IMG/VR virus record: IMGVR_UViG_3300035637_000045
Reading direction: 5' to 3' (one strand)
DNA length: 20,000 nt
Source of the DNA: an uncultured virus (IMG/VR IMGVR_UViG_3300035637_000045)
Taxonomy: Duplodnaviria; Heunggongvirae; Uroviricota; Caudoviricetes
The notes below the pieces were generated by a model, which made no database searches, was not told the DNA's origin, and saw only the letters and a program-made list of their open reading frames with translations. The translations under genes and the position numbers were made by a program. The stretch's first letter is position 1. The number at the start of each line of letters is the position of its first letter. Shown in pieces: positions 4,336 to 20,000 of the stretch.

Positions 4336-4785
4336 TTACTGCGCGGGCGTCACCGGCCAGGCGTCGCGGTGCTTTCGGACATCATTCGCGTGGCCGTCAG
4401 CTTGACCCGCCAGTTCTTGATAGCTTCGGCTGCAGTCAGCGAATAGTCCACTGACGGTAGTGGCGTACTCAGCGACGGCGGCGGGGGGAGCTGCAGCGAT
4501 GCGGCGGGCGGTGTCGCTGAGTTGCTCGCGCAGCCCGTCAGACTCACGAGCAGCAGCGGCCAGATGACGGCGAGAGATAGTTTCGCGTTCGGTAGCGGCA
4601 TTGAGGGCTCCTTGGTATTTCGTAGTGATTGCGTGCTGCTCGGCGCGCAGCGTAGACGTGGCCTCGATGACGGCGTTTGCATGTCCCAGCCGCAGTTCGG
4701 CCAGCTCGGCGGTGTAGCGGTTGTCCTGGAAGAACCAGGCGGCCAGTGCCGCGATGACGGCTGCGGCGAGGTGGGTGTAGATCAT
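4336..4785 (-). CDS. Inner-membrane spanin (Rz-like), 149 aa
   Basis: ATG 4785 overlaps the endolysin stop (ATGA). N-terminal TM segment HLAAAVIAALAAWFF followed by an Ala-rich coiled coil. Confidence 0.85.
   Translation of the reverse strand: MIYTHLAAAVIAALAAWFFQDNRYTAELAELRLGHANAVIEATSTLRAEQHAITTKYQGALNAATERETISRRHLAAAARESDGLREQLSDTARRIAAAPPAAVAEYATTVSGLFADCSRSYQELAGQADGHANDVRKHRDAWPVTPAQ
4350..4601 (-). CDS. Outer-membrane lipoprotein spanin (Rz1-like), 83 aa, fully embedded in the i-spanin in another frame
   Basis: GGAG SD then ATG 4601. MPLPNAKLSLAVIWPLLLVSLTG-C with lipobox LTGC, followed by a Pro-rich segment (LPPPPSLSTPLP). Confidence 0.85.
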   Translation of the reverse strand: MPLPNAKLSLAVIWPLLLVSLTGCASNSATPPAASLQLPPPPSLSTPLPSVDYSLTAAEAIKNWRVKLTATRMMSESTATPGR

Positions 4786-5288
4786 TGGGCCTCCATGCAC
4801 TTTTTGTGGCGCTCTTGGGCACGCAGCCACACGCCCCGGCACCCGCTGCCGGGGAGGCTGCAGTCTTTGCCGGTCGCCCGGCGCGAGTCGAGGTTCAGGT
4901 AGGCGTTGCAGGATGCCACGTAGTCGCCACGGTTGATGGCCTTGACGACCTCAGACCGGCATGCCCCGCCAGAACCGCGCCAGTAGGCAAAGTCCACCAG
5001 GATGTCGTATTCCTGCTGGCTCAGGGGTCCAGTCACGCAGCGCTTGAGCTGCAGCTCGTCCTTGCCGATGTGGGCGAGGCTCATGCGCAGCGCTTTTTGT
5101 GGCGTGGTGGTGTCGCCCAGCTTCACCGGTGAGCCGTCTTCCTTGAACGTGGACCCAAAGCCCACCGTGGGACGGTCGCCAGGGATGGGGATGTATGCGC
5201 TGTCCCGGTAGCCTTCATGCGATACCAGGGCGATCAGCCCGGCAGCCGAGAGCACCAGCCCGGCCACTGCGGTGCGGCGCTGGCTCAT
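4782..5288 (-). CDS. SAR endolysin, GH24 phage lysozyme, 168 aa
   Basis: ATG 5288 overlaps the holin stop. Gly/Ala-rich SAR segment TAVAGLVLSAAGLIALV, then HEGYRDSAYIPIPGDRPTVGFGST. C-terminal GVWLRAQERHKKC. Confidence 0.9.
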   Translation of the reverse strand: MSQRRTAVAGLVLSAAGLIALVSHEGYRDSAYIPIPGDRPTVGFGSTFKEDGSPVKLGDTTTPQKALRMSLAHIGKDELQLKRCVTGPLSQQEYDILVDFAYWRGSGGACRSEVVKAINRGDYVASCNAYLNLDSRRATGKDCSLPGSGCRGVWLRAQERHKKCMEAQ

Positions 5289-5554
5289 TCGTCGGCCCCT
5301 AGTTCGCCAAGGTCGGTGTCCGCCCGCTGCCCGCGCCGTAGGCGCTCCATGCGCAACGCGTGCTCCGCTATGTGGCGGCGGTTCGCTTCGCGCTTGTAGT
5401 GCCAGCTGATAAGTACGCCGATCAGCGCGACGACAAGGCCCGCGAGCCCGATAAACTGGCTCGACAGGAGCCACCCGAATACGCCCAGGCCGGCGCCAGC
5501 GCCTGCGGTGCGGTCGCCCAGCGTGGCGAGGTGGTTGATAGCTTCGTCGTTCAT
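5285..5554 (-). CDS. Holin (possibly a pinholin), 89 aa
   Basis: One or two hydrophobic segments (GAGLGVFGWLLSSQFIGLAGLVVALIGVLISW) and a charged C-terminal tail. Directly upstream of the endolysin. Confidence 0.8.
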   Translation of the reverse strand: MNDEAINHLATLGDRTAGAGAGLGVFGWLLSSQFIGLAGLVVALIGVLISWHYKREANRRHIAEHALRMERLRRGQRADTDLGELGADE

Positions 5555-12738: not shown

Positions 12739-13110
12739 TCAGTCGTCCTTGCCGACCTTGAACTCAGTCCACAGGATGTCGCGCTCTTTGGCGCCGAGCT
12801 TCCAGCCCAGGATCGACTCGAGAGCACCGCCGTGCGGGGCACCGCCGGCAGTGAAGTCTTCGCGGGAGTTGCGCAGGGCCAGCATCTCAAACGCGGCGAA
12901 GACGTCGTCCTTGCGCTTGTTCGGGTCTTGGGGCTCGTTGGTCTTGACGGCGCTGGGCGCGTCTTCGATCTCGTCGTCGGGCACGGCACCAATGGCCTGC
13001 ACCTCGGCGTACAGCTCGGGTGGGACGTGCGTGGGCACGCCCTTTTTGAACTCGACGGACAGGCCCAGCACGGAGGCGTGGACACGGTCGCGGTTGAGGG
13101 TGAACTTCAT
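12739..13110 (-). CDS. Hypothetical phage protein, 123 aa
   Basis: GGAG SD, codon bias matches neighbours, tightly packed in the operon. Confidence 0.75.
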   Translation of the reverse strand: MKFTLNRDRVHASVLGLSVEFKKGVPTHVPPELYAEVQAIGAVPDDEIEDAPSAVKTNEPQDPNKRKDDVFAAFEMLALRNSREDFTAGGAPHGGALESILGWKLGAKERDILWTEFKVGKDD

Positions 13111-13129
13111 AGCGATCTCCAGGTGATGG

Positions 13130-13157
13130 AAGAACGGGGCGCTAAGGCCCCGTCTTC
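13130..13157 (-). terminator. Hairpin after the capsid and decoration genes, likely a partial terminator
   Basis: mRNA: GAAG-ACGGGGC-CUUAGC-GCCCCGU-UCUUC. 7-bp GC-rich stem with a short pyrimidine tail. Confidence 0.55.
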
Positions 13158-13167
13158 ATGGTCCCGA

Positions 13168-13620
13168 TCAGTTCGGGTTGACTTCGGTGATACGGCCGTC
13201 GGTCGTGTAGTTCACGCGGAGGCGGAACTTGCCGGCCGAGGCGTTGGCCACCGTCGATGCGATGGTCACGCGCACGTTCTTGCCGTCCACAGCCGCCAGG
13301 CCCAAACCGGTCAGGGCGACCCGGGTACCGGCTGCGGACAGCAAGGTCGTTGCTGCCAGGAGGGCGGCGGCGGAGGCCGAGGTGCCGACAGCGGCGGTGT
13401 AGGCCGTAGGGCCGACGCCCGCCTCTTCGACGATCAGTTCGCCACCGACCACCACCGCGCCCTGGGGCAGGTTGATAACCTCGAAGACACCGGCATCGGT
13501 GTAGACGGAGCCGAAGGTCTTGAGGGCCCCGGCGGTGTCTTTCATGGTGTCGTTGAAGCTGAATACGAACTCAGCCGACATGACGGGCTGTGCGCCGCGG
13601 GTTGCTTGTTTCAGAGCCAT
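13168..13620 (-). CDS. Putative capsid decoration/cement protein, 150 aa
   Basis: Follows the major capsid gene with a strong SD (TAAGGAGG). Beta-sandwich-like pattern (LPQGAVVVGG...AGKFRLRVNY). Confidence 0.65.
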   Translation of the reverse strand: MALKQATRGAQPVMSAEFVFSFNDTMKDTAGALKTFGSVYTDAGVFEVINLPQGAVVVGGELIVEEAGVGPTAYTAAVGTSASAAALLAATTLLSAAGTRVALTGLGLAAVDGKNVRVTIASTVANASAGKFRLRVNYTTDGRITEVNPN

Positions 13621-13633
13621 GGTGATGCCCTCC

Positions 13634-14752
13634 TTACTGAGCCACGTAGCACGAGATCACGCCGAAGTCTTCGACGGAGCCGTTCTCGTAGATGTTGCCG
13701 AACTTGGGCTTCAGGAAGCCGAGGATCTTGCCCACCGAGATACCTTGCGAGTTCTCGTAGTCAAAGCCCTTTTCGTTCCACTCGGGTGCGCCGATGTCGG
13801 CCATGGCCAGCGCCTGGGCGCCGCAGAACAGCACCTGGCAACCGTCGACCGTGCCCACCGCGCCGTACTTCGAGCCAGATGCGGCGCCGGTGGTGTTGGG
13901 CACATGGCGGAACTCGTGCAGGTAGATGCCGTCGATCTTCACGGTCGCGCCGGTGAAGAGCGGGTTGGCCTTGTCACGCTCTTGCGCGTGGCGCAGATTG
14001 AGCATGTAGTTTTGGTCCATCTTCAGCTTGGCCATGGCCTGGGGCGTCAGGAAGGCGTGGAAGGTTTCCTCGCCGCCGTCTTCCTTCACGCCACGGATGT
14101 AGCGGTCCTTGGCGTAGGCCTTGAGCTGCACGAACATTTCCCACATCGGGGTGTCGGTGGCGGCCACACCGGAGCTGGCGGCGCCGGCCACCAGGGTCTT
14201 GGTGGCCGAGGTGCCGTCCCAGCGCAGGCGGCGGGCAGCGGTCGGGGCGGCCACGTCAGCAGCGAACTCCAGGAACTGGAGGTCGGAGCCGGTGCGGTTC
14301 GCGCCGTTGGGCTTCTTGGCGTAGCTGATGCCGGCCATGGTCTGGAATGCCAGCTGGTCCATGCGGTCGGCGAGCCAGTAGCTCAGCAGGTCGCGGCTGT
14401 TGCCACGGAACTCGATGATGGACTTCTGGTCGGCCATGCGGCCTTCGTGGCGGTTGGCTTGACGCAGCTGGTCGATGCGGATGACCTGGTCAAAGGTCTG
14501 CATCGCTTCTTCGTTGCCTTCCAGCGTGCGGTCACCGGCAATGCCGTCGCCGGTCAGGTCGGCCAGCAGCGTGATGACTGCGCGGGCGCCCTTCTCGGAC
14601 TTCTTCAGCTCGGTGATGTGCTGAATCAGGCTGTTGGGGCCCTTGCCCAGGAAGCGGTTGATGAAGGAGTGGTTGCGGGACTGTTTCCACAAGTCCATAG
14701 ACCAGACGGTCTTCTGCTCGGACGTCAGGAGTCCGAAATTGGTGAGTGCCAT
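13634..14752 (-). CDS. Major capsid protein, N4-gp56/DUF4043-like family, 372 aa
   Basis: Motifs ELKKSEKG, GDRTLEGNEE, IDQLRQA, NPLFTGA...IDGIYLHE, LFCGAQAL, DFGVI. Position after portal and scaffold. Confidence 0.9.
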   Translation of the reverse strand: MALTNFGLLTSEQKTVWSMDLWKQSRNHSFINRFLGKGPNSLIQHITELKKSEKGARAVITLLADLTGDGIAGDRTLEGNEEAMQTFDQVIRIDQLRQANRHEGRMADQKSIIEFRGNSRDLLSYWLADRMDQLAFQTMAGISYAKKPNGANRTGSDLQFLEFAADVAAPTAARRLRWDGTSATKTLVAGAASSGVAATDTPMWEMFVQLKAYAKDRYIRGVKEDGGEETFHAFLTPQAMAKLKMDQNYMLNLRHAQERDKANPLFTGATVKIDGIYLHEFRHVPNTTGAASGSKYGAVGTVDGCQVLFCGAQALAMADIGAPEWNEKGFDYENSQGISVGKILGFLKPKFGNIYENGSVEDFGVISCYVAQ

Positions 14753-14879
14753 GGTGGCGCCCTTTCGTTGGTAGACAAAAACGATCGGCCTGGAGGGCCT
14801 GCCTTTTGCCGATGTGTCGTCTCGACCAACGAGGGTGGAAAGATGCTGTCGGGATCTTTGCCTTTAACCGATGGAGCAC

Positions 14880-14907
14880 ATTCTAATCTATAAAAGATAA
14901 ACGACAA
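14880..14907 (-). promoter_or_regulatory. Candidate sigma70-type promoter for the capsid operon
   Basis: Minus strand TTGTCG-N16-TAGAAT in a strongly AT-rich patch, ~125 nt upstream of the capsid ATG. Confidence 0.45.
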
Positions 14908-14926
14908 GCGGCGCCGAAGCGCCGCT
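14907..14926 (-). terminator. Intrinsic terminator-like hairpin closing the three-gene insert
   Basis: mRNA AGCGGCGC-UUCG-GCGCCGCU (cUUCGg tetraloop, 8-bp stem) followed by UGUCGUUUAUCUUUU. T-rich on the other side too. Confidence 0.7.
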
Positions 14927-14945
14927 GTGGTTTATTTGCGTGGGG

Positions 14946-15281
14946 TCAGCTGGCGGCCAGCTTGCTGCGCAGCTCGTAGCCCATGAGGGGCCACAGCTCG
15001 TTCTTGGTGTTGCTGATGGCAACCGCTACGCCGATCTCTGCGTCGTCGTTCTCTGGGGAAACGCTGACCGAGGGGCGCCCAACGACGGCGAAGCCGTTGC
15101 GAGTCGTGATGACTGCCCAGCGCAGCACCTGGCCGTTGACACTGACGTGCTTCACGATCTCGGTGTCAATGATGTTTGCCGACATGTCTTCTGGGGTCAC
15201 CCGTGGGGCAGTCTTTCCCTTGGCCTGGATCAGGCGCTCGATGCCTGCGTCGGACGTGTCGGGTGATGGGATGTGGTTCAT
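14946..15281 (-). CDS. Phage gp49/gp66-family protein, putative Acb4-like anti-CBASS nucleotide sponge, 111 aa
   Basis: ATG 15281 overlaps the upstream TGA. Motifs APRVTP, NGFAVVG...SVSPENDDAEIG...A...LWPLMGYEL match my recollection of the N4 gp49/Sf6 gp66 family (PF13876). Confidence 0.75.
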   Translation of the reverse strand: MNHIPSPDTSDAGIERLIQAKGKTAPRVTPEDMSANIIDTEIVKHVSVNGQVLRWAVITTRNGFAVVGRPSVSVSPENDDAEIGVAVAISNTKNELWPLMGYELRSKLAAS

Positions 15282-15703
15282 GCGACACTCCAATCGTCGG
15301 CCAACACGTCGTTCACGCTGGGCACCCAGGTACTGACCGTACCATCCACGTTTTTGATCGCCATATAGGCGTTGTAGGGCACCATCGCGCCTGCGCCGAA
15401 GTGCGCCTTGGCCGCGCCAGTCTGCACTGGGTAGCTGGCCGGTGGGACCAAGTACACGAACATGCCCTTGCCGTTCCAGCCGGCGCGCGAGGCGCGCATG
15501 CCCAGCTTCATGTAATGCAGAGCATCGCCGAAGGTCAGTGCCTGCGGCAGCCCCGGTTCGCTGGTGCGGTACGCGCCCTCAAAAGCCTCTTTCGGGCTCC
15601 AACTGATATAGCCGTCGGCGTACTTAACGCCATAACCGGGCGCGCCGTCTTTCTCGGCGGGCCATGCGGTTACTTCTTTTGTACCGATGTAGCGGTGGGT
15701 CAC
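15278..15703 (-). CDS. Two-domain protein: uncharacterised N-terminal domain plus DUF2829 (Tad2-like anti-Thoeris sponge), 141 aa
   Basis: Start re-set to GTG 15703 after SD GAAAGGA. C-domain LTFGDAL..MKLG.RASRAGWNGKGMFV...WVPSVNDVLADDW has the DUF2829 signature. N-domain is YIGTKEVTAWP...GYGVKYADGYISWSPKEAFEGAY. Confidence 0.85.
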   Translation of the reverse strand: MTHRYIGTKEVTAWPAEKDGAPGYGVKYADGYISWSPKEAFEGAYRTSEPGLPQALTFGDALHYMKLGMRASRAGWNGKGMFVYLVPPASYPVQTGAAKAHFGAGAMVPYNAYMAIKNVDGTVSTWVPSVNDVLADDWSVA

Positions 15704-15713
15704 GGGGTTCCTT

Positions 15714-16151
15714 TCAGCGAGCCTGCTCGCGTGCGATAGCGTGGACGACGCCACGGAAGATGAAGTCCTTGGCCTTCTGCTCGGTCGGCAGGTCAGCGTA
15801 CGGGACGATGCACGGGTGCTCCTTCTTGGCCGGGTCCTTGATCGGGCCGTAGGTCCAGCCGGTGTCCAGCTTCTCGCGCATCCAGGCGTCGTGGCTGGCA
15901 CTCACGCCCAGGTTCGGGTTGCGCAGGTGCAGCTGTACGCCCTTGACGGCGCTGTCGCGCTGCCACTGCGGAGCGTCTTCCCAGTTGGTCTGGGTCATGT
16001 CGCCGACGGCCTCACAGTAGGCCTTGTTGACCTCGTGGGCCACGCGGGCGACGGAGAGTTCCAGCGGAGAAGCGAAGGTCTCGGCGGTGGCGCCGCTGGC
16101 CAGGGCTACGGCGGCGGATGCCTTGGCGGCGGCGGTCATGCGGGTGCTCAC
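15714..16151 (-). CDS. RyR-domain protein, 145 aa
   Basis: HDAWMREKLDTGWTYGPIKDPAKKEHPCIVPYADLPTEQKAKD matches the ryanodine-receptor repeat consensus (H..W...K...GW.YG...D...K.HP.LVPY..L.E.EK..D). GTG overlaps the scaffold stop; alternative ATG four codons later. Confidence 0.85.
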   Translation of the reverse strand: MSTRMTAAAKASAAVALASGATAETFASPLELSVARVAHEVNKAYCEAVGDMTQTNWEDAPQWQRDSAVKGVQLHLRNPNLGVSASHDAWMREKLDTGWTYGPIKDPAKKEHPCIVPYADLPTEQKAKDFIFRGVVHAIAREQAR

Positions 16152-17137
16152 AGCTCATCCCCCCGCATCCGGGCCAGCACGTCGTCCGGCAGCTTGCGGA
16201 AGTCGTCCTGGCTCAGCTTCATGACGTCCTTGGCGGTCAGGGAGCCGCCGGCCTTGTCGCTGTCCATGCCCACCTTGGTCATGCTGGGCGGCGTCTTGCC
16301 CATGGCGTCCAGGGTCTTCTTCACGGCGTCCTTCTTGCGCTCGGCGGCCACGTCCTTGTCGGCCACGCGCGGCGTGGTGTCGATGGCGGCTTCCTGCTTC
16401 TTGGTGCTCGTGCCCAGCAGCTTGTCTACGGCCTTCTGCATGGCGGCGGTGGGGGTCAGGCCCTTGCGCTCGTAGGCACCCTTGAGGTCGATCACGTCTT
16501 CCATCAGGGCCTCGTCGTAGTCGCCGTGATCCTCGTTCAGCTGGGGGTAGGCCGACTCGATGCGCTCCAGGGCCACGTTGTAGCGGGCGCGCTCGGTGGC
16601 GCGGGCTTCGGCCGCCGCGATCTTCATGTCGTTCTTGGCGTCGCCGATGCTGCGCTCGGCCTGACGGATCTTGGACATCAGGGCCGCAGCCTTGTCCAGC
16701 TCGCCTTCGCCCAGCAGGGCGTTGTACTGCTTCTCCATGGCCAGGATGCTCTCCTCGGCCTGGGTGATGTCCTGGTTCAGGGAGGCGACCTCCGTGCCGC
16801 GCTGGAACTGCGACAGCTGGCGCTCCAGGTCGGCGCGCTTGGCACGCTCCTTCTCCAGCAAATCCTTGTGGCGGGACAGCGGGATGCGCTGTTCACGCTG
16901 CTTTTTCTCGGCCTTGGTCTCTTCCTCGGCCTCCGGGTCGGCGTCTGGGTCTTCGGGGTCGATGTCGTCGTCCGAGTCCGCGGCGCTGGGGGTGGGCTTT
17001 GCGGCCGGCGCGGGCTCGTCTTCCGTGGAGACGAAGTCGTCGCCCCGGTCAATCACGCCGGAGCCGCCGGTGTCGGAGCCGTCATCGCCCGCCGGGGCCA
17101 TGTAGCGCGAGAGGAGTTTCTGCAAGAGCGGGTTCAT
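16148..17137 (-). CDS. Capsid scaffolding protein, 329 aa
   Basis: Acidic disordered N-terminus, RIPLSR motif, long coiled coil, C-terminal helix (KLSQDDFRKLPDDVLARMRGD). Lies between portal and capsid. Confidence 0.8.
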   Translation of the reverse strand: MNPLLQKLLSRYMAPAGDDGSDTGGSGVIDRGDDFVSTEDEPAPAAKPTPSAADSDDDIDPEDPDADPEAEEETKAEKKQREQRIPLSRHKDLLEKERAKRADLERQLSQFQRGTEVASLNQDITQAEESILAMEKQYNALLGEGELDKAAALMSKIRQAERSIGDAKNDMKIAAAEARATERARYNVALERIESAYPQLNEDHGDYDEALMEDVIDLKGAYERKGLTPTAAMQKAVDKLLGTSTKKQEAAIDTTPRVADKDVAAERKKDAVKKTLDAMGKTPPSMTKVGMDSDKAGGSLTAKDVMKLSQDDFRKLPDDVLARMRGDEL

Positions 17138-19281
17138 CGGAGTCCTTTGGTTGGTTGGGTGGTCTGGGGCTTCTGCGCGGCCATCGCGGCCTCGCGGGAT
17201 GCTTCTGCGCGCTTGTCCAGGCGCTCCTGGGCCTGCTGCTGGGCCTGGAGGGACAGCTTGTCGTTGTGCTGCTGGCGCTGCAGGCCGAGCTTCTGGTAGT
17301 CCAGCACGCGGCGGTGCTCGAACTCACGCTCGGCCAGGTCGGCCTCGTGCTGGGCCTTGGCCGCCTCCAGCTCAGGGTTGCCGGCGTCTGGGGCGTCGGG
17401 GGGCGTGTTCGCCAGGACCTGGGCCTTGACGATGGTCTCCTGGGTCTTGGCACCCTTGAGCTGGGCATCAGCGTGCTTCTGGGCGGCTTCGCCTTCGGCC
17501 TTGCCGACTTCAGCTTCCTGGGCGCGGCGCTGCAGCTCGGCTGCGGCCTGGGCTTCGGGGCTCTCCTGGTCGCCCTGCATCTGCTTGATGATGTCTTTCT
17601 TGTTCATCAGGCGGCTGGAGTCGATCAGCACGCTGTCGGGGATCATCACGCCCATCTCGCGCAGGGCCACGGCCTGCTCGAACTGGCTGTCTTCCAGGGT
17701 CTCGCGGCGCGGTACGGAGCTGACCACCACGTCGTACTCACCCAGGGTCAGGTCGTTAACGATCTGGCCTGCAGGGGTGACCTCGTTCACGGCGAAGGTC
17801 TCGGTCTCGCCTGTGGCCTCGTCGTGGGTGATCGTCATGATGCGCTCTTCGGTGTAGAACTGCTGCACCAGGTCGAGGATGTTGCGGGCCAGAATGTGGT
17901 CGGTGCGCGACAGGCTGTCCATCGGCTTGGCCAGGTTCGTCGCGCCGGCCTGGCGCTTGGCCTGGATGGCCTTGGCAGCCACGTCCTCGCGGTCGAAGCC
18001 CCGGGCAGAGTCCGATACGCCGGAGATCGTCTTGATGTGCTCTTCGGCCTTGTAGGTGATGCGGTCCAGGCCGGTGGGCACCTGGTTGGGCTGGATCTTT
18101 TCGATGTCGTTGACGTCGTTGACCTCGACTACCAGCCCGGTCTGGGCGCCCTTTTCTTCCAGCTCCTCCACGGTCATATTCGTGAGCGAGCCGGTCTTGA
18201 CCTTCCAGCCGCTGTTGGCCGTGGTGTTGATGACGTGCAGCTCCTGACTGGAGACCTTGTTCAGCAGCTCCTGGGGACCCAGCAGGTTCTCGACCAAGCC
18301 GATGGTCGTGCCCCGGCGGAAGTACGGGAAGAACGGCACCACCGTGAAGTGCTTGTAGGGGCTCCAGTCGTCGTGCAGGCGCACGTTGTCGGCGATCACC
18401 GTCCAACGGATGCGGCGCACGAGCTTGGTCGTGACCTGCAGCCCGTACTGGCTCGTCATCAGGGCGATCTTGTTGCGGTCGAAGTCGTCTGGGATGGGGC
18501 GCATGTCGCCCGTGGTGGGGTCGACGAAGTGTTTCTGGCGGTCCAGCAGGCGGTACTGGCGCTCGATCAGGCGGATGTTGCGCATCACCGAGCTGTTGTC
18601 ATAGTCGCCCGTGTACATCGGGTTGAACCGGTCGCCGAACCGGTCACGGAAGGCCTGGATGCTGTCGTAGCCGTAGGGGAAGAAGCTCTGCTCGCGGTTG
18701 CGCAGATATTCGGCGTCCTCCTTGTTGTAGAGCACCGCGATGTCGTCTGCGGTGACCCACTTGGTCGTGAACACCTCGCTCCAGCTGTCCGGGTCGTACT
18801 CTTCGCCGTCCGGATCGATGATGACGTTCTTGGGGTTCAGGTTGTCGACGATCACCTCGCCCTGCATGCTGTCGCCGTAGCCGATGCGCACGTCCAGGAA
18901 GCCCCGGGAGGTGATGGCACCGTCGGCGAACATGTCGCTGCGCTTCCAGTCGAGCTGGTTGTTGTCGCTGATCTGCTTGAAGACCTTGGTGAGGATGTCA
19001 GCGACTTCGCTGGGGGCACCGGAGCGCGGCCGGAAGCTCGTCTCGGCCCGGTTGAAGATCTGCTCGCCCAGCACGTTGCTGATCGTGGAGAGGATCTTGT
19101 TGATCGTCAGCGCCGGGCGGCGCACGGCCTCCAGGCGGGCCTTGTCGGCGCGGTCCCACTGGTCGCCCCGGAAGAAGGCGTCGCATTTCTCCGCCTTCTG
19201 GACGAACTGGGCATGACCGTTGTCACGACTCCACGCATACCGCGTCCAGATTTTTGTGGCGAGTGCAGTGTCAATCGGCAT
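17134..19281 (-). CDS. Portal protein, P22-like, 715 aa
   Basis: FFRGDQW, RPALTINKI, VPFFPY, GLVENLLGPQELLNK, NDLTLGEYDVVV, and a Q/A/E-rich C-terminal coiled coil. Lies downstream of the terminase. Confidence 0.9.
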   Translation of the reverse strand: MPIDTALATKIWTRYAWSRDNGHAQFVQKAEKCDAFFRGDQWDRADKARLEAVRRPALTINKILSTISNVLGEQIFNRAETSFRPRSGAPSEVADILTKVFKQISDNNQLDWKRSDMFADGAITSRGFLDVRIGYGDSMQGEVIVDNLNPKNVIIDPDGEEYDPDSWSEVFTTKWVTADDIAVLYNKEDAEYLRNREQSFFPYGYDSIQAFRDRFGDRFNPMYTGDYDNSSVMRNIRLIERQYRLLDRQKHFVDPTTGDMRPIPDDFDRNKIALMTSQYGLQVTTKLVRRIRWTVIADNVRLHDDWSPYKHFTVVPFFPYFRRGTTIGLVENLLGPQELLNKVSSQELHVINTTANSGWKVKTGSLTNMTVEELEEKGAQTGLVVEVNDVNDIEKIQPNQVPTGLDRITYKAEEHIKTISGVSDSARGFDREDVAAKAIQAKRQAGATNLAKPMDSLSRTDHILARNILDLVQQFYTEERIMTITHDEATGETETFAVNEVTPAGQIVNDLTLGEYDVVVSSVPRRETLEDSQFEQAVALREMGVMIPDSVLIDSSRLMNKKDIIKQMQGDQESPEAQAAAELQRRAQEAEVGKAEGEAAQKHADAQLKGAKTQETIVKAQVLANTPPDAPDAGNPELEAAKAQHEADLAEREFEHRRVLDYQKLGLQRQQHNDKLSLQAQQQAQERLDKRAEASREAAMAAQKPQTTQPTKGLR

Positions 19282-19356
19282 GGTGGCGGACCCGCTCGCG
19301 CGAGTGGTCCGCCGTGCCGATCAGGCCGGTTTCGTGTGTTTGTGGGGAGGGCGCGC

Positions 19357-19710
19357 TCATTTCAGGTATCTCAGCTTGTACAAGGTCTGGGCCGTCAGGG
19401 CCTGCAGCTCGTTCAGGATGTTGGCCAGGGCCTGGTTCTTGCCGTCCTCGGCCAGCTCGGCTGCGATCTTGCCGAGGTAGGCGGTCAGGCTGGAGATCAG
19501 GTTGCCCGAGGGCAGGCTGGTGGCGGGGAACGACTTGATCCGGCCCCCGGTGCCCATGTAAACCTCGGCGTACTGGTCAACCAGCGGCAGGAGGGCGCTG
19601 TAGAAGTCGCCGAGGGCGACGTGCTGGGCGTAGGACTCGGTCGAGAGGTGGGCCAGGTGGGCTGCGGTGCGCAGCGCCATGCTATCGACGATGAATTGGG
19701 GGCAGCTCAT
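19357..19710 (-). CDS. Dps/ferritin-like four-helix protein (DUF5856-like), 117 aa
   Basis: Start re-set to ATG 19710. AHLAHLSTESYAQHVALGDFY...VDQYAEVYMG...LYKLRYLK resembles the Dps H...H...D..AE ferroxidase pattern. Confidence 0.7.
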   Translation of the reverse strand: MSCPQFIVDSMALRTAAHLAHLSTESYAQHVALGDFYSALLPLVDQYAEVYMGTGGRIKSFPATSLPSGNLISSLTAYLGKIAAELAEDGKNQALANILNELQALTAQTLYKLRYLK

Positions 19711-19726
19711 GCGTATCCGTCCCACT

Positions 19727-20000
19727 CTAGGCCGCCATGTGGCCGACCGTCCCGCCGAGCACGCTGAGTTTCTTGCGCCATGATTCTGGTTCCTTCGTCT
19801 TCGGCCTGCGTGGAGGCTCCTTGTTGACCGCCATCGTCGCCATCCAAGCCAGCGCGTCGACCTGATCGTCGTGCACACCGGCCGGGAAGCGCAGCATCTC
19901 TGCCCGTGCGCCTTCATACCATTCGGCGCTGTCGGAAAAACTCACCATCCCTTGCTGCATGCGCCCTTGGAGCGGTCGCGCCCGGGCCATCTTATCGGTG
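19727..20000 (-). CDS. terL: Terminase large subunit, C-terminal nuclease end (5' part outside the window)
   Basis: DKMARARPLQGRMQQG...EMLRFPAGVHDDQVDALAW contains the characteristic FP...HDDQVDA motif. Confidence 0.9.
   Translation of the reverse strand, partial: TDKMARARPLQGRMQQGMVSFSDSAEWYEGARAEMLRFPAGVHDDQVDALAWMATMAVNKEPPRRPKTKEPESWRKKLSVLGGTVGHMAA

Follow-up and report, generated by a model that had tools for sequence, protein, structure and literature searches.

The DNA analyzed here, a stretch of 20,000 nucleotides (nt) from the uncultured Caudoviricetes virus IMGVR_UViG_3300035637_000045 of the IMG/VR database (hereafter the window), carries between its putative scaffold and major capsid genes a cassette of three minus-strand open reading frames (ORFs), within positions 14946-16151, which are named genes A, B and C in the order of their translation. 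They encode members of the RyR-domain, Tad2 and Acb4 families, and sequence comparisons suggest that the cassette is an accessory module against the Thoeris and CBASS (cyclic oligonucleotide-based antiphage signalling system) defences of bacteria, lodged in a hotspot of gene exchange where the portal-scaffold unit has its 3′ end. All coordinates are positions in the window, and all the features listed in the table lie on its minus strand.

The three genes are tightly packed, and the ORF coordinates match the overlaps described in the original prediction, which was made from the letters of the window. The GTG start of gene A (16151..16149) overlaps the TGA stop of the scaffold gene (16150..16148) in a GTGA at 16148-16151, genes A and B are 10 nt apart (15704-15713), and the ATG start of gene C (15281..15279) overlaps the TGA stop of gene B (15280..15278) in an ATGA. 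A Shine-Dalgarno-like motif (GGGGA, AAGGA and GGAG, respectively) precedes each start by 5-6 nt. The cUUCGg hairpin that had been proposed to end the cassette lies just outside it (14926..14907), about 20 nt past the gene C stop, with seven of its eight stem pairs being G-C and its UUCG loop closed by a C-G pair; the fold of the surrounding region (14753-14960) has a z score of -3.19. A consensus scan of both strands of positions 13000-19900 gave a sole promoter-like site, TTGTCG-16-TAGAAT, which overlaps this hairpin, and none before the cassette. The putative scaffold protein has no Pfam or PHROG match. The GC content of the cassette (62-63%) compares with 57-69% in its flanks, and base composition gives no sign of a recent foreign origin.

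Table. Features of the head-gene region and of the cassette in the window
Feature	Position	Strand	Basis
Portal gene, 715 amino acids (aa), first head-unit gene visible in the window	17134..19281	-	PF16510 P22_portal, E 3.3e-95; phrog_156 portal
Putative scaffold gene, 329 aa, acidic, helical	16148..17137	-	Named from position and composition alone
Gene A, RyR-domain protein (RyR Tad / RyDEP family), 145 aa, GTG start	15714..16151	-	PF02026
Gene B, two-domain Tad2, 141 aa, GTG start	15278..15703	-	PF11195
Extra N-terminal domain of gene B, residues 1-52, small Tudor/SH3-like beta-barrel	15548..15703	-	Model
Tad2 domain of gene B, residues 55-140	15284..15541	-	PF11195; match spans residues 57-140
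Gene C, Acb4-family protein, 111 aa, ATG start	14946..15281	-	PF13876
Terminator-like hairpin	14907..14926	-	8-bp stem, UUCG loop, U-rich tail
Sigma-70-like promoter match ahead of the capsid gene, TTGTCG-16-TAGAAT	14880..14907	-	Consensus match only
Major capsid gene, 372 aa	13634..14752	-	PF13252, E 1.1e-40; phrog_334 major head protein

Gene A matches PF02026, a profile that the original prediction had listed for checking, with 45.2 bits (curated cut-off 27.4; E-value (E) 1.1e-11), and this family has since been published as anti-Thoeris in two reports (PMC13232231; 10.64898/2026.06.04.730250). One of them describes RyDEP, of mycobacteriophage DyoEdafos, as an anti-Thoeris glycosidase opening 2′/3′ cyclic ADP-ribose (cADPR), with sponge-type homologues (PMC13232231), and the other describes RyR Tad, gp68 of Pectobacterium phage vB_PatP_CB1, as a sponge of glycocyclic ADP-ribose (gcADPR) with a dissociation constant of 43 nM for 1″-3′ gcADPR, which rescues phage from type I Thoeris (10.64898/2026.06.04.730250). 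Gene A shows 54% identity to the C-domain of gp68 over 103 aa (BLASTP, E 4e-44, 130 bits), and a weaker match (46.9 bits) to the solved 139-aa RyR-domain protein 35tm_A. The six gp68 residues whose mutation is reported to weaken ligand binding (H129, W132, K147, H154, K170 and D171; 10.64898/2026.06.04.730250) are all identical in gene A (H87, W90, K105, H112, K128 and D129), so that both proteins share a PF02026 R12-like domain with the complete ligand set, including the His/Asp pair and the adenine-stacking Trp. The much closer similarity to gp68 favours a predicted sponge rather than a glycosidase, which most likely would sequester 2′/3′ cADPR, the signal of type I Thoeris. Gene A differs from gp68 in its place, the head operon instead of the vicinity of a primase gene, and in its N-terminus, where the beta domain of gp68 is missing and an Ala-rich extension of 27-30 aa is found instead. 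This extension (residues 1-27, 16071-16151) is also missing in the homologues, whose matches start at residues 27-34 (phages) or 24-34 (homologues from the same position in related genomes), and may be a linker, a targeting peptide or the product of a mis-called start.

Residues 57-140 of gene B match PF11195 with 82.3 bits (cut-off 25). This profile carries the Pfam name "Tad2-like", and the identification of DUF2829 with the Tad2 family in the original prediction holds for gene B in profile, sequence and fold. The best solved relatives are two structures of MoTad2, one bound to histidine-ADP-ribose (His-ADPR; 9eib, E 4.6e-24) and one apo (8v3e, E about 5e-24), about half of the residues in the alignment being identical; SPO1 Tad2 (E 3.7e-14) and HgmTad2 come next. 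A model built from 41 homologues, with a predicted local distance difference test score (pLDDT) of 94.8, retrieved through Foldseek Tad2-family structures at all of ranks 1-23 (Tad2 and HgmTad2/AcrIIA7; target-normalised template-modelling (TM) scores 0.62-0.87), and the VIA comparison gave Z values of 10.5 to 9eib_A and 8kbi_A. In gene B, W76, N77, S129 and D132 are identical to W21, N22, S90 and D93 of HgmTad2, four of the five residues of the gcADPR pocket that were mutagenised there; the fifth, T92, is replaced by N131. Like MoTad2/ModTad2 (9EIB, 8V3E), SPO1 Tad2 and HgmTad2, gene B combines the PF11195 domain and the Tad2 fold with the GWNG and W..S..D pocket motifs, and its insertion is short, as in MoTad2 and SPO1 Tad2, instead of the long one through which HgmTad2 binds cyclic di-GMP (cGG). 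The ligands of the family vary widely (3′cADPR, His-ADPR, N7-cADPR, cUMP/cCMP and cGG/cGAMP): MoTad2 binds His-ADPR and cUMP, SPO1 Tad2 binds gcADPR, and HgmTad2 binds cGG at picomolar affinity. The closeness of gene B to MoTad2 suggests His-ADPR, perhaps cUMP; most likely, this protein would sequester Thoeris signals derived from ADP-ribose, namely gcADPR, His-ADPR or both, and a cyclic mononucleotide is a further possible ligand.

Whereas the solved Tad2 proteins are single-domain, gene B adds an N-terminal domain modelled as a Tudor/SH3-like barrel of four strands plus a helix. The two-domain form is shared by gp49 of phage N4, which aligns over residues 4-141 of gene B with 38.6% identity, and is common, since 1822 proteins were found at E ≤0.001, most of the best 120 covering 96-100% of gene B. 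The N-domain of gp68 (residues 3-96) and that of gene B match the same regions of phrog_872 and phrog_9467 and align with each other at E 0.009 (pairwise BLASTP), and the module is shared by sponges of four types (Tad2, RyR Tad, Sequestin and Acb4). In gp68 it is described as a domain-swapped dimerisation sheet, with no activity alone (10.64898/2026.06.04.730250). For the gene B N-domain Foldseek gave no match, and the Atlas part-search only unnamed small proteins (0.83-0.84, below the 0.9 line). No function is drawn from the VIA neighbours, as these Tudor/SH3-like barrels (Z ≤5.4) fall within the range of chance fold resemblance; the best of them, the RNA-polymerase-binding Tudor-like barrels of the Mfd RID, CarD and the UvrD/PcrA C-terminus (Z 4.8-5.4), are a lead only.

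Several relatives of gene B carry further domains, either Sequestin (PF21825; P0005, of 214 aa, P0069 and P0085, with 68-83% identity) or Acb4 (PF13876; P0052, of 237 aa, from a Burkholderia vietnamiensis record, with 75% identity), which indicates that the same Tad2 backbone is re-used in fusions. Far from its head genes, Acidovorax phage AP1 has a homologue (OM049504.1, 47712-48110) that is 61% identical over residues 15-140, so the location of this sponge gene differs between the genomes of related phages. PF11195 gave no match in the nearest virus record (G001, an 18.9-kb fragment estimated to be 25% complete).

Gene C matches PF13876 (Phage_gp49_66) with 52.5 bits (cut-off 27). That this gp49/66 family contains Acb4, as stated in the original prediction, is confirmed by the report on SPO1 Acb4, in which eight of eight diverse PF13876 proteins bound 3′3′-cGAMP (10.1101/2024.12.30.630793). 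Searched alone with phmmer, gene C matched no solved structure; a profile of 18 homologues from the same position in related genomes matched Acb4 (9e4w) alone, with E 5.5e-7. The gene C model (pLDDT 89.8) retrieved 9e4w chains at Foldseek ranks 1-10 (probability 1.00, root-mean-square deviation 2.5-5.0 Å, 24-26% identity, target-normalised TM 0.59-0.69), and the next hits were ribosome-hibernation factors, as also described for the family (10.1101/2024.12.30.630793). Matches in profile and structure were thus found for Acb4 as well as for Tad2. A four-copy prediction scored 0.90, against 0.01 for the best of three controls, with at least 93% of the contacts common between runs and a partner pLDDT of at least 88; in a calibration on two copies, 20 of 30 proteins with a solved one-chain pair and 1 of 23 with a solved single chain attained this mark, and the model may be remembering the solved Acb4 tetramer. 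Gene C shares with SPO1 Acb4 (9E4W) the PF13876 domain, a core arranged alpha-beta-beta-beta-alpha and a long C-terminal helix, and its predicted homotetramer has the sheet-to-sheet and C-helix interfaces of Acb4. It differs from it in sequence (about 24% identity) and belongs to a short subtype among its homologues at this position. Most likely, gene C would form a tetramer that sequesters CBASS cyclic dinucleotides, its predicted ligand being the least certain of the three.

The content of the slot in which the cassette lies, between scaffold and capsid, turned out to be variable in related genomes. With the capsid protein as query, 80 IMG/VR loci were collected, and scaffold homologues were found in 71 of them, which contain both flanking genes. 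The distance from the scaffold to the capsid gene in these 71 loci spans 168-3328 bp; 10 loci are free of insert (<320 bp) and 61 carry one. The nearest cultured phages, the KPP25-like Pseudomonas phages and AP1, have gaps of 181 and 160 bp, without insert. The original prediction had regarded the cassette as an interruption of the usual scaffold-capsid adjacency, and had asked whether the insert at this locus is variable. The relatives show adjacency as well as variable inserts, an insert being the commoner state in the lineage.

The inserts collapse to 48 distinct sequences, which were analyzed through Pfam searches of 143 candidate ORFs, and tblastn for the duplicates. At least one of five sponge families is present in 30 of the 48: PF13876 (Acb4) in 27, PF02026 (RyR) in 12, PF11195 (Tad2) in 5, PF21825 in 5 and the Acb2/Tad1 hairpin domain in 1; PF21825 corresponds to Sequestin (10.1101/2025.07.12.664507). 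Single-ORF fusions also occur at the slot, namely Acb4+Tad2 (L020), RyR+Acb4 (L041) and N-domain+Sequestin (L029). The trio of the window was found in only one of the 71 loci (L003, 97-100% identical to the window). None of the five families is present in the other 18 inserts, some of which carry a lysozyme, holin or sigma-70 gene.

Other proteins of the slot and its surroundings deserve mention. A phrog_2293 protein of 93-120 aa was found in 7 of 33 unassigned slot ORFs scanned, corresponding to seven distinct inserts (L019:4940-5296, L006:4658-5014, L022:3299-3607, L034:5036-5368, L024:5452-5811, L071:5278-5556 and L026:4757-5068), with no Pfam match in the two tested. Its gene always adjoins RyR, Acb4 or Tad2 genes, and the protein is a candidate for a further counter-defence family. 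In four loci (L007, L009, L010 and L050; 2772-5834) the slot holds a phrog_2428 protein of 113-115 aa and an 899-aa ORF, which has no Pfam family and a weak head-decoration match (E 4.4e-7). PF13876 genes also occur between the portal and scaffold genes (L014:2474-2857 and L038:2211-2642, and by tblastn L015 and L076), which indicates that the head operon has at least two accessory slots. A 105-aa gene of AP1 found there (L002:5266-5583) is related to gene A (BLASTP, E 5e-16), the last 11 residues of the two being almost the same. The 27-residue segment bearing the ligand His, Trp, Lys and His is missing, no Pfam family matches, and the gene looks like a decayed RyR-domain gene in this second slot. 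The cultured phages 8P, of Pseudomonas (L084:3967-4827), and USP_18 (L085:3997-4827), which share a PF13252 capsid and an SU10-type adaptor, have, flanked by a small structural gene and that of the adaptor, a gene for a protein of 276-286 aa; its RyR domain is N-terminal, and its long C-terminal part matches a coiled coil weakly.

Natural variants of the cassette itself were found in public sequencing runs. At least half of the sampled words of the window stretch are present in 14 runs from 9 studies, mostly labelled as wastewater, one of which may be the source of the window, and contigs of four of these runs (X2, X5, X11 and X12; the last two gave identical figures and are counted once) were compared with the window. 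A 1186-nt contig (X11/X12) joins position 14926 to 16148, with 20 other letters between them, and an X2 contig joins 14945 to 16148. These contigs come from near-identical strains whose scaffold stop leads directly into the hairpin region; the cassette itself is covered by further contigs from these runs. Another junction, between 15281 and 15716, was found in contigs of X2 and X5; it contains 11 other letters, an AGGAG motif among them, and removes gene B alone, exactly at its boundaries. Altogether, contigs lacking the cassette or gene B come from three studies. Junctions at gene borders in near-identical strains indicate that the genes are separately gained or lost, and dispensable, and their gene-by-gene presence or absence points to a rapid turnover. 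The RNA runs X15-X20 contain only 0.06-0.09 of the sampled words; runs X2 and X6-X8, doubtfully labelled as RNA, are probably DNA and are available as contigs, which do not show transcripts.

The expression of the cassette can be approached from its context. In 25 of 55 distinct relatives, among them L004 and L077, which carry no insert, a terminator-like hairpin with a perfect stem begins 137-189 nt before the capsid ATG, its sequence differing between them; in two others the distance is 47 or 60 nt, and by strict criteria it is missing in 28. The inserts thus occupy the interval from the scaffold stop to a terminator whose position is conserved. Overlapping stops and starts, together with a terminator after the cassette and no promoter-like site before it, are consistent with co-expression with the portal and scaffold genes, so that transcription and translation of the cassette would probably follow those of portal and scaffold, at the tail of one message, and the capsid gene may have its own promoter. 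Capsid escape mutants are known for CBASS. On the side of Thoeris, tail fibres are reported to set the sensitivity to the type II system (10.64898/2026.06.04.730250). It is plausible, as the original prediction proposed, that the antidote would be made together with late-protein triggers.

From these data, with a probability of about 0.8, three small oligomeric proteins would be made from the scaffold-coupled tail of the message. The product of gene A would remove 2′/3′ cADPR (type I Thoeris), that of gene B gcADPR and/or His-ADPR and possibly a cyclic mononucleotide, and the tetramer of gene C CBASS cyclic dinucleotides, and the loss of these nucleotide alarm signals would block abortive-infection immunity of the bacterium. 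The anti-Thoeris/anti-CBASS module put forward in the original prediction is sustained to the extent that all three genes belong to experimentally characterised anti-signal families, with Pfam matches above curated cut-offs and far beyond what chance would give. The reading is built on sequence comparison, predicted structures and natural variants, from which the ligands, by way of family membership, the sponge or enzyme nature of gene A and the timing of expression are deduced. Several observations weigh against it. The His/Asp pair kept in gene A is catalytic in RyDEP, which makes a glycosidase possible, and it is also kept in the sponge gp68. The wide range of Tad2 specificities implies that the ligand of gene B is not readable from family membership. 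For gene C, the best Foldseek E is weak (1.6e-2), and two of ten cGAMP-contact residues of SPO1 Acb4 are identical (F48 and I66, corresponding to F64 and I83 of gene C in a profile-alignment mapping), the others (K36, E49, V56, Y57, F62, N63, T70 and K81) being different, with changes such as K36 to V, F62 to D and K81 to P; the binding of cGAMP by all eight diverse members suggests, however, that the pocket residues of Acb4 are not family-defining. The 18 sponge-free inserts, some with lysis genes or a sigma factor, make the slot a general accessory hotspot rather than a dedicated anti-signal locus. Finally, published immune-evasion genes are described as expressed early to mid infection (PMC13232231), and a purely late cassette might act too late for early triggers.

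A different role of the same binding capacities, in phage metabolism or host manipulation, such as NAD+ salvage through a RyDEP-type glycosidase or the titration of c-di-GMP, would be in line with the His/Asp pair of gene A, with the reported feeding of NAD+ regeneration by RyDEP activity (PMC13232231) and with the picomolar binding of cGG by HgmTad2. This explanation appears improbable, since gene B has the short insertion and not the cGG-binding one, Acb4 proteins are described as avoiding housekeeping cGG (10.1101/2024.12.30.630793) and, in the literature covered, the characterised members of the three families all either came to light through evasion of Thoeris, CBASS or Pycsar or were shown to bring it about. 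The translational coupling to the scaffold gene inside the head operon has also raised the idea that the proteins, made late, travel with the DNA, either packaged in the capsid or retained by the scaffold, and act at the very start of the next infection, with the N-terminal barrel, which recurs on four sponge types, or the Ala-rich extension of gene A, missing in homologues, as targeting element. This delivery appears about equally improbable: the equivalent barrel of gp68 is the inactive dimerisation sheet already mentioned (10.64898/2026.06.04.730250), strains without the cassette indicate that it is not needed for assembly, and the head-module RyR gene of phage 8P is annotated as "hypothetical" among neighbours annotated as "structural protein", although these are record labels only. 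That the three genes are head-assembly or decoration components of the lineage, as their position between scaffold and capsid and the head-decoration-like 899-aa ORF in the same slot of L007 could suggest, is hardly credible, given that they are missing in KPP25, AP1, 10 of 71 related loci and near-identical strains, that loci differ in what the slot contains, and that all three match non-structural families. The variable slot excludes that they are essential head components, an outcome that would have spoken against the original prediction.

A more far-reaching version of the anti-signalling reading, in which the scaffold-capsid junction of this podophage lineage would be a dedicated late slot, with sponges either made in step with the head proteins that trigger Thoeris and CBASS or loaded into the capsid, and with the N-terminal barrel shared by Tad2, RyR Tad, Sequestin and Acb4 as an adaptor, is considered unlikely; if true, it would represent a strategy of counter-defence timing or delivery unlike the early-gene model.

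Clusters and fusions of these families have precedents. In N4-like phages (Migulavirinae) an anti-signalling hotspot, exemplified by Ab09 gp59-61, is described between the primase-polymerase and virion RNA polymerase genes (10.64898/2026.06.04.730250). Like the slot, it gathers adjacent, individually dispensable anti-CBASS and anti-Thoeris genes, with variable content from Tad2, Acb4, Sequestin and RyR Tad, whereas replication genes surround it, and the slot separates scaffold from capsid, with coupling to the scaffold stop on one side and a terminator on the other. Bes1 and Bes2 were not seen at the slot. Sponge fusions have also been published, such as the Acb4-Tad2 protein of Pasteurella phage Pm86 and Sequestin fusions (10.1101/2025.07.12.664507). 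They combine the same domains as the slot, where L020, L041 and L029 carry single-ORF fusions, but they are single polypeptides, and the cassette of the window is made of separate, translationally coupled genes. The sponge families, their fusions and a multi-gene anti-signalling hotspot were therefore already published, and the unusual part is the place in the head operon. For counter-defence genes within a structural module, the anti-CRISPR loci of Mu-like Pseudomonas phages, which sit among head genes, are a precedent. The literature covered, which did not include preprint supplementary tables, yielded nothing on a head-operon sponge slot of the KPP25-like lineage, and the listed papers on KPP25, Kochitakasuvirus and phiR18 mention no sponges in title or abstract.

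Two further features of the window concern the surroundings of the head unit. Just upstream of the portal gene, where KPP25 has the terminase large subunit, lies a 186-aa DUF5856 / phrog_858 protein (19357-19917), whose PHROG name is "starvation-inducible transcriptional regulator", and an endolysin (phrog_7) and an Rz-like spanin are found inside the structural block on the same strand (4336-5474).

As such, the cassette is an annotation result, and its main value lies in the hotspot as a source for the discovery of counter-defence genes and in a test case of expression timing. The slot represents a second, positionally distinct sponge hotspot, inside the head operon, which rotates five sponge families, and its unassigned small ORFs, such as phrog_2293, form a shortlist for new counter-defence genes by the same guilt-by-association as for Sequestin and RyR Tad. 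The rapid turnover of the genes among near-identical strains would fit a cost of carrying sponges, for instance through sponge-sensing systems such as Panoptes. In any case, the scaffold-coupled cassette offers an opportunity to learn whether such genes are late and still defeat an immunity triggered by late proteins.

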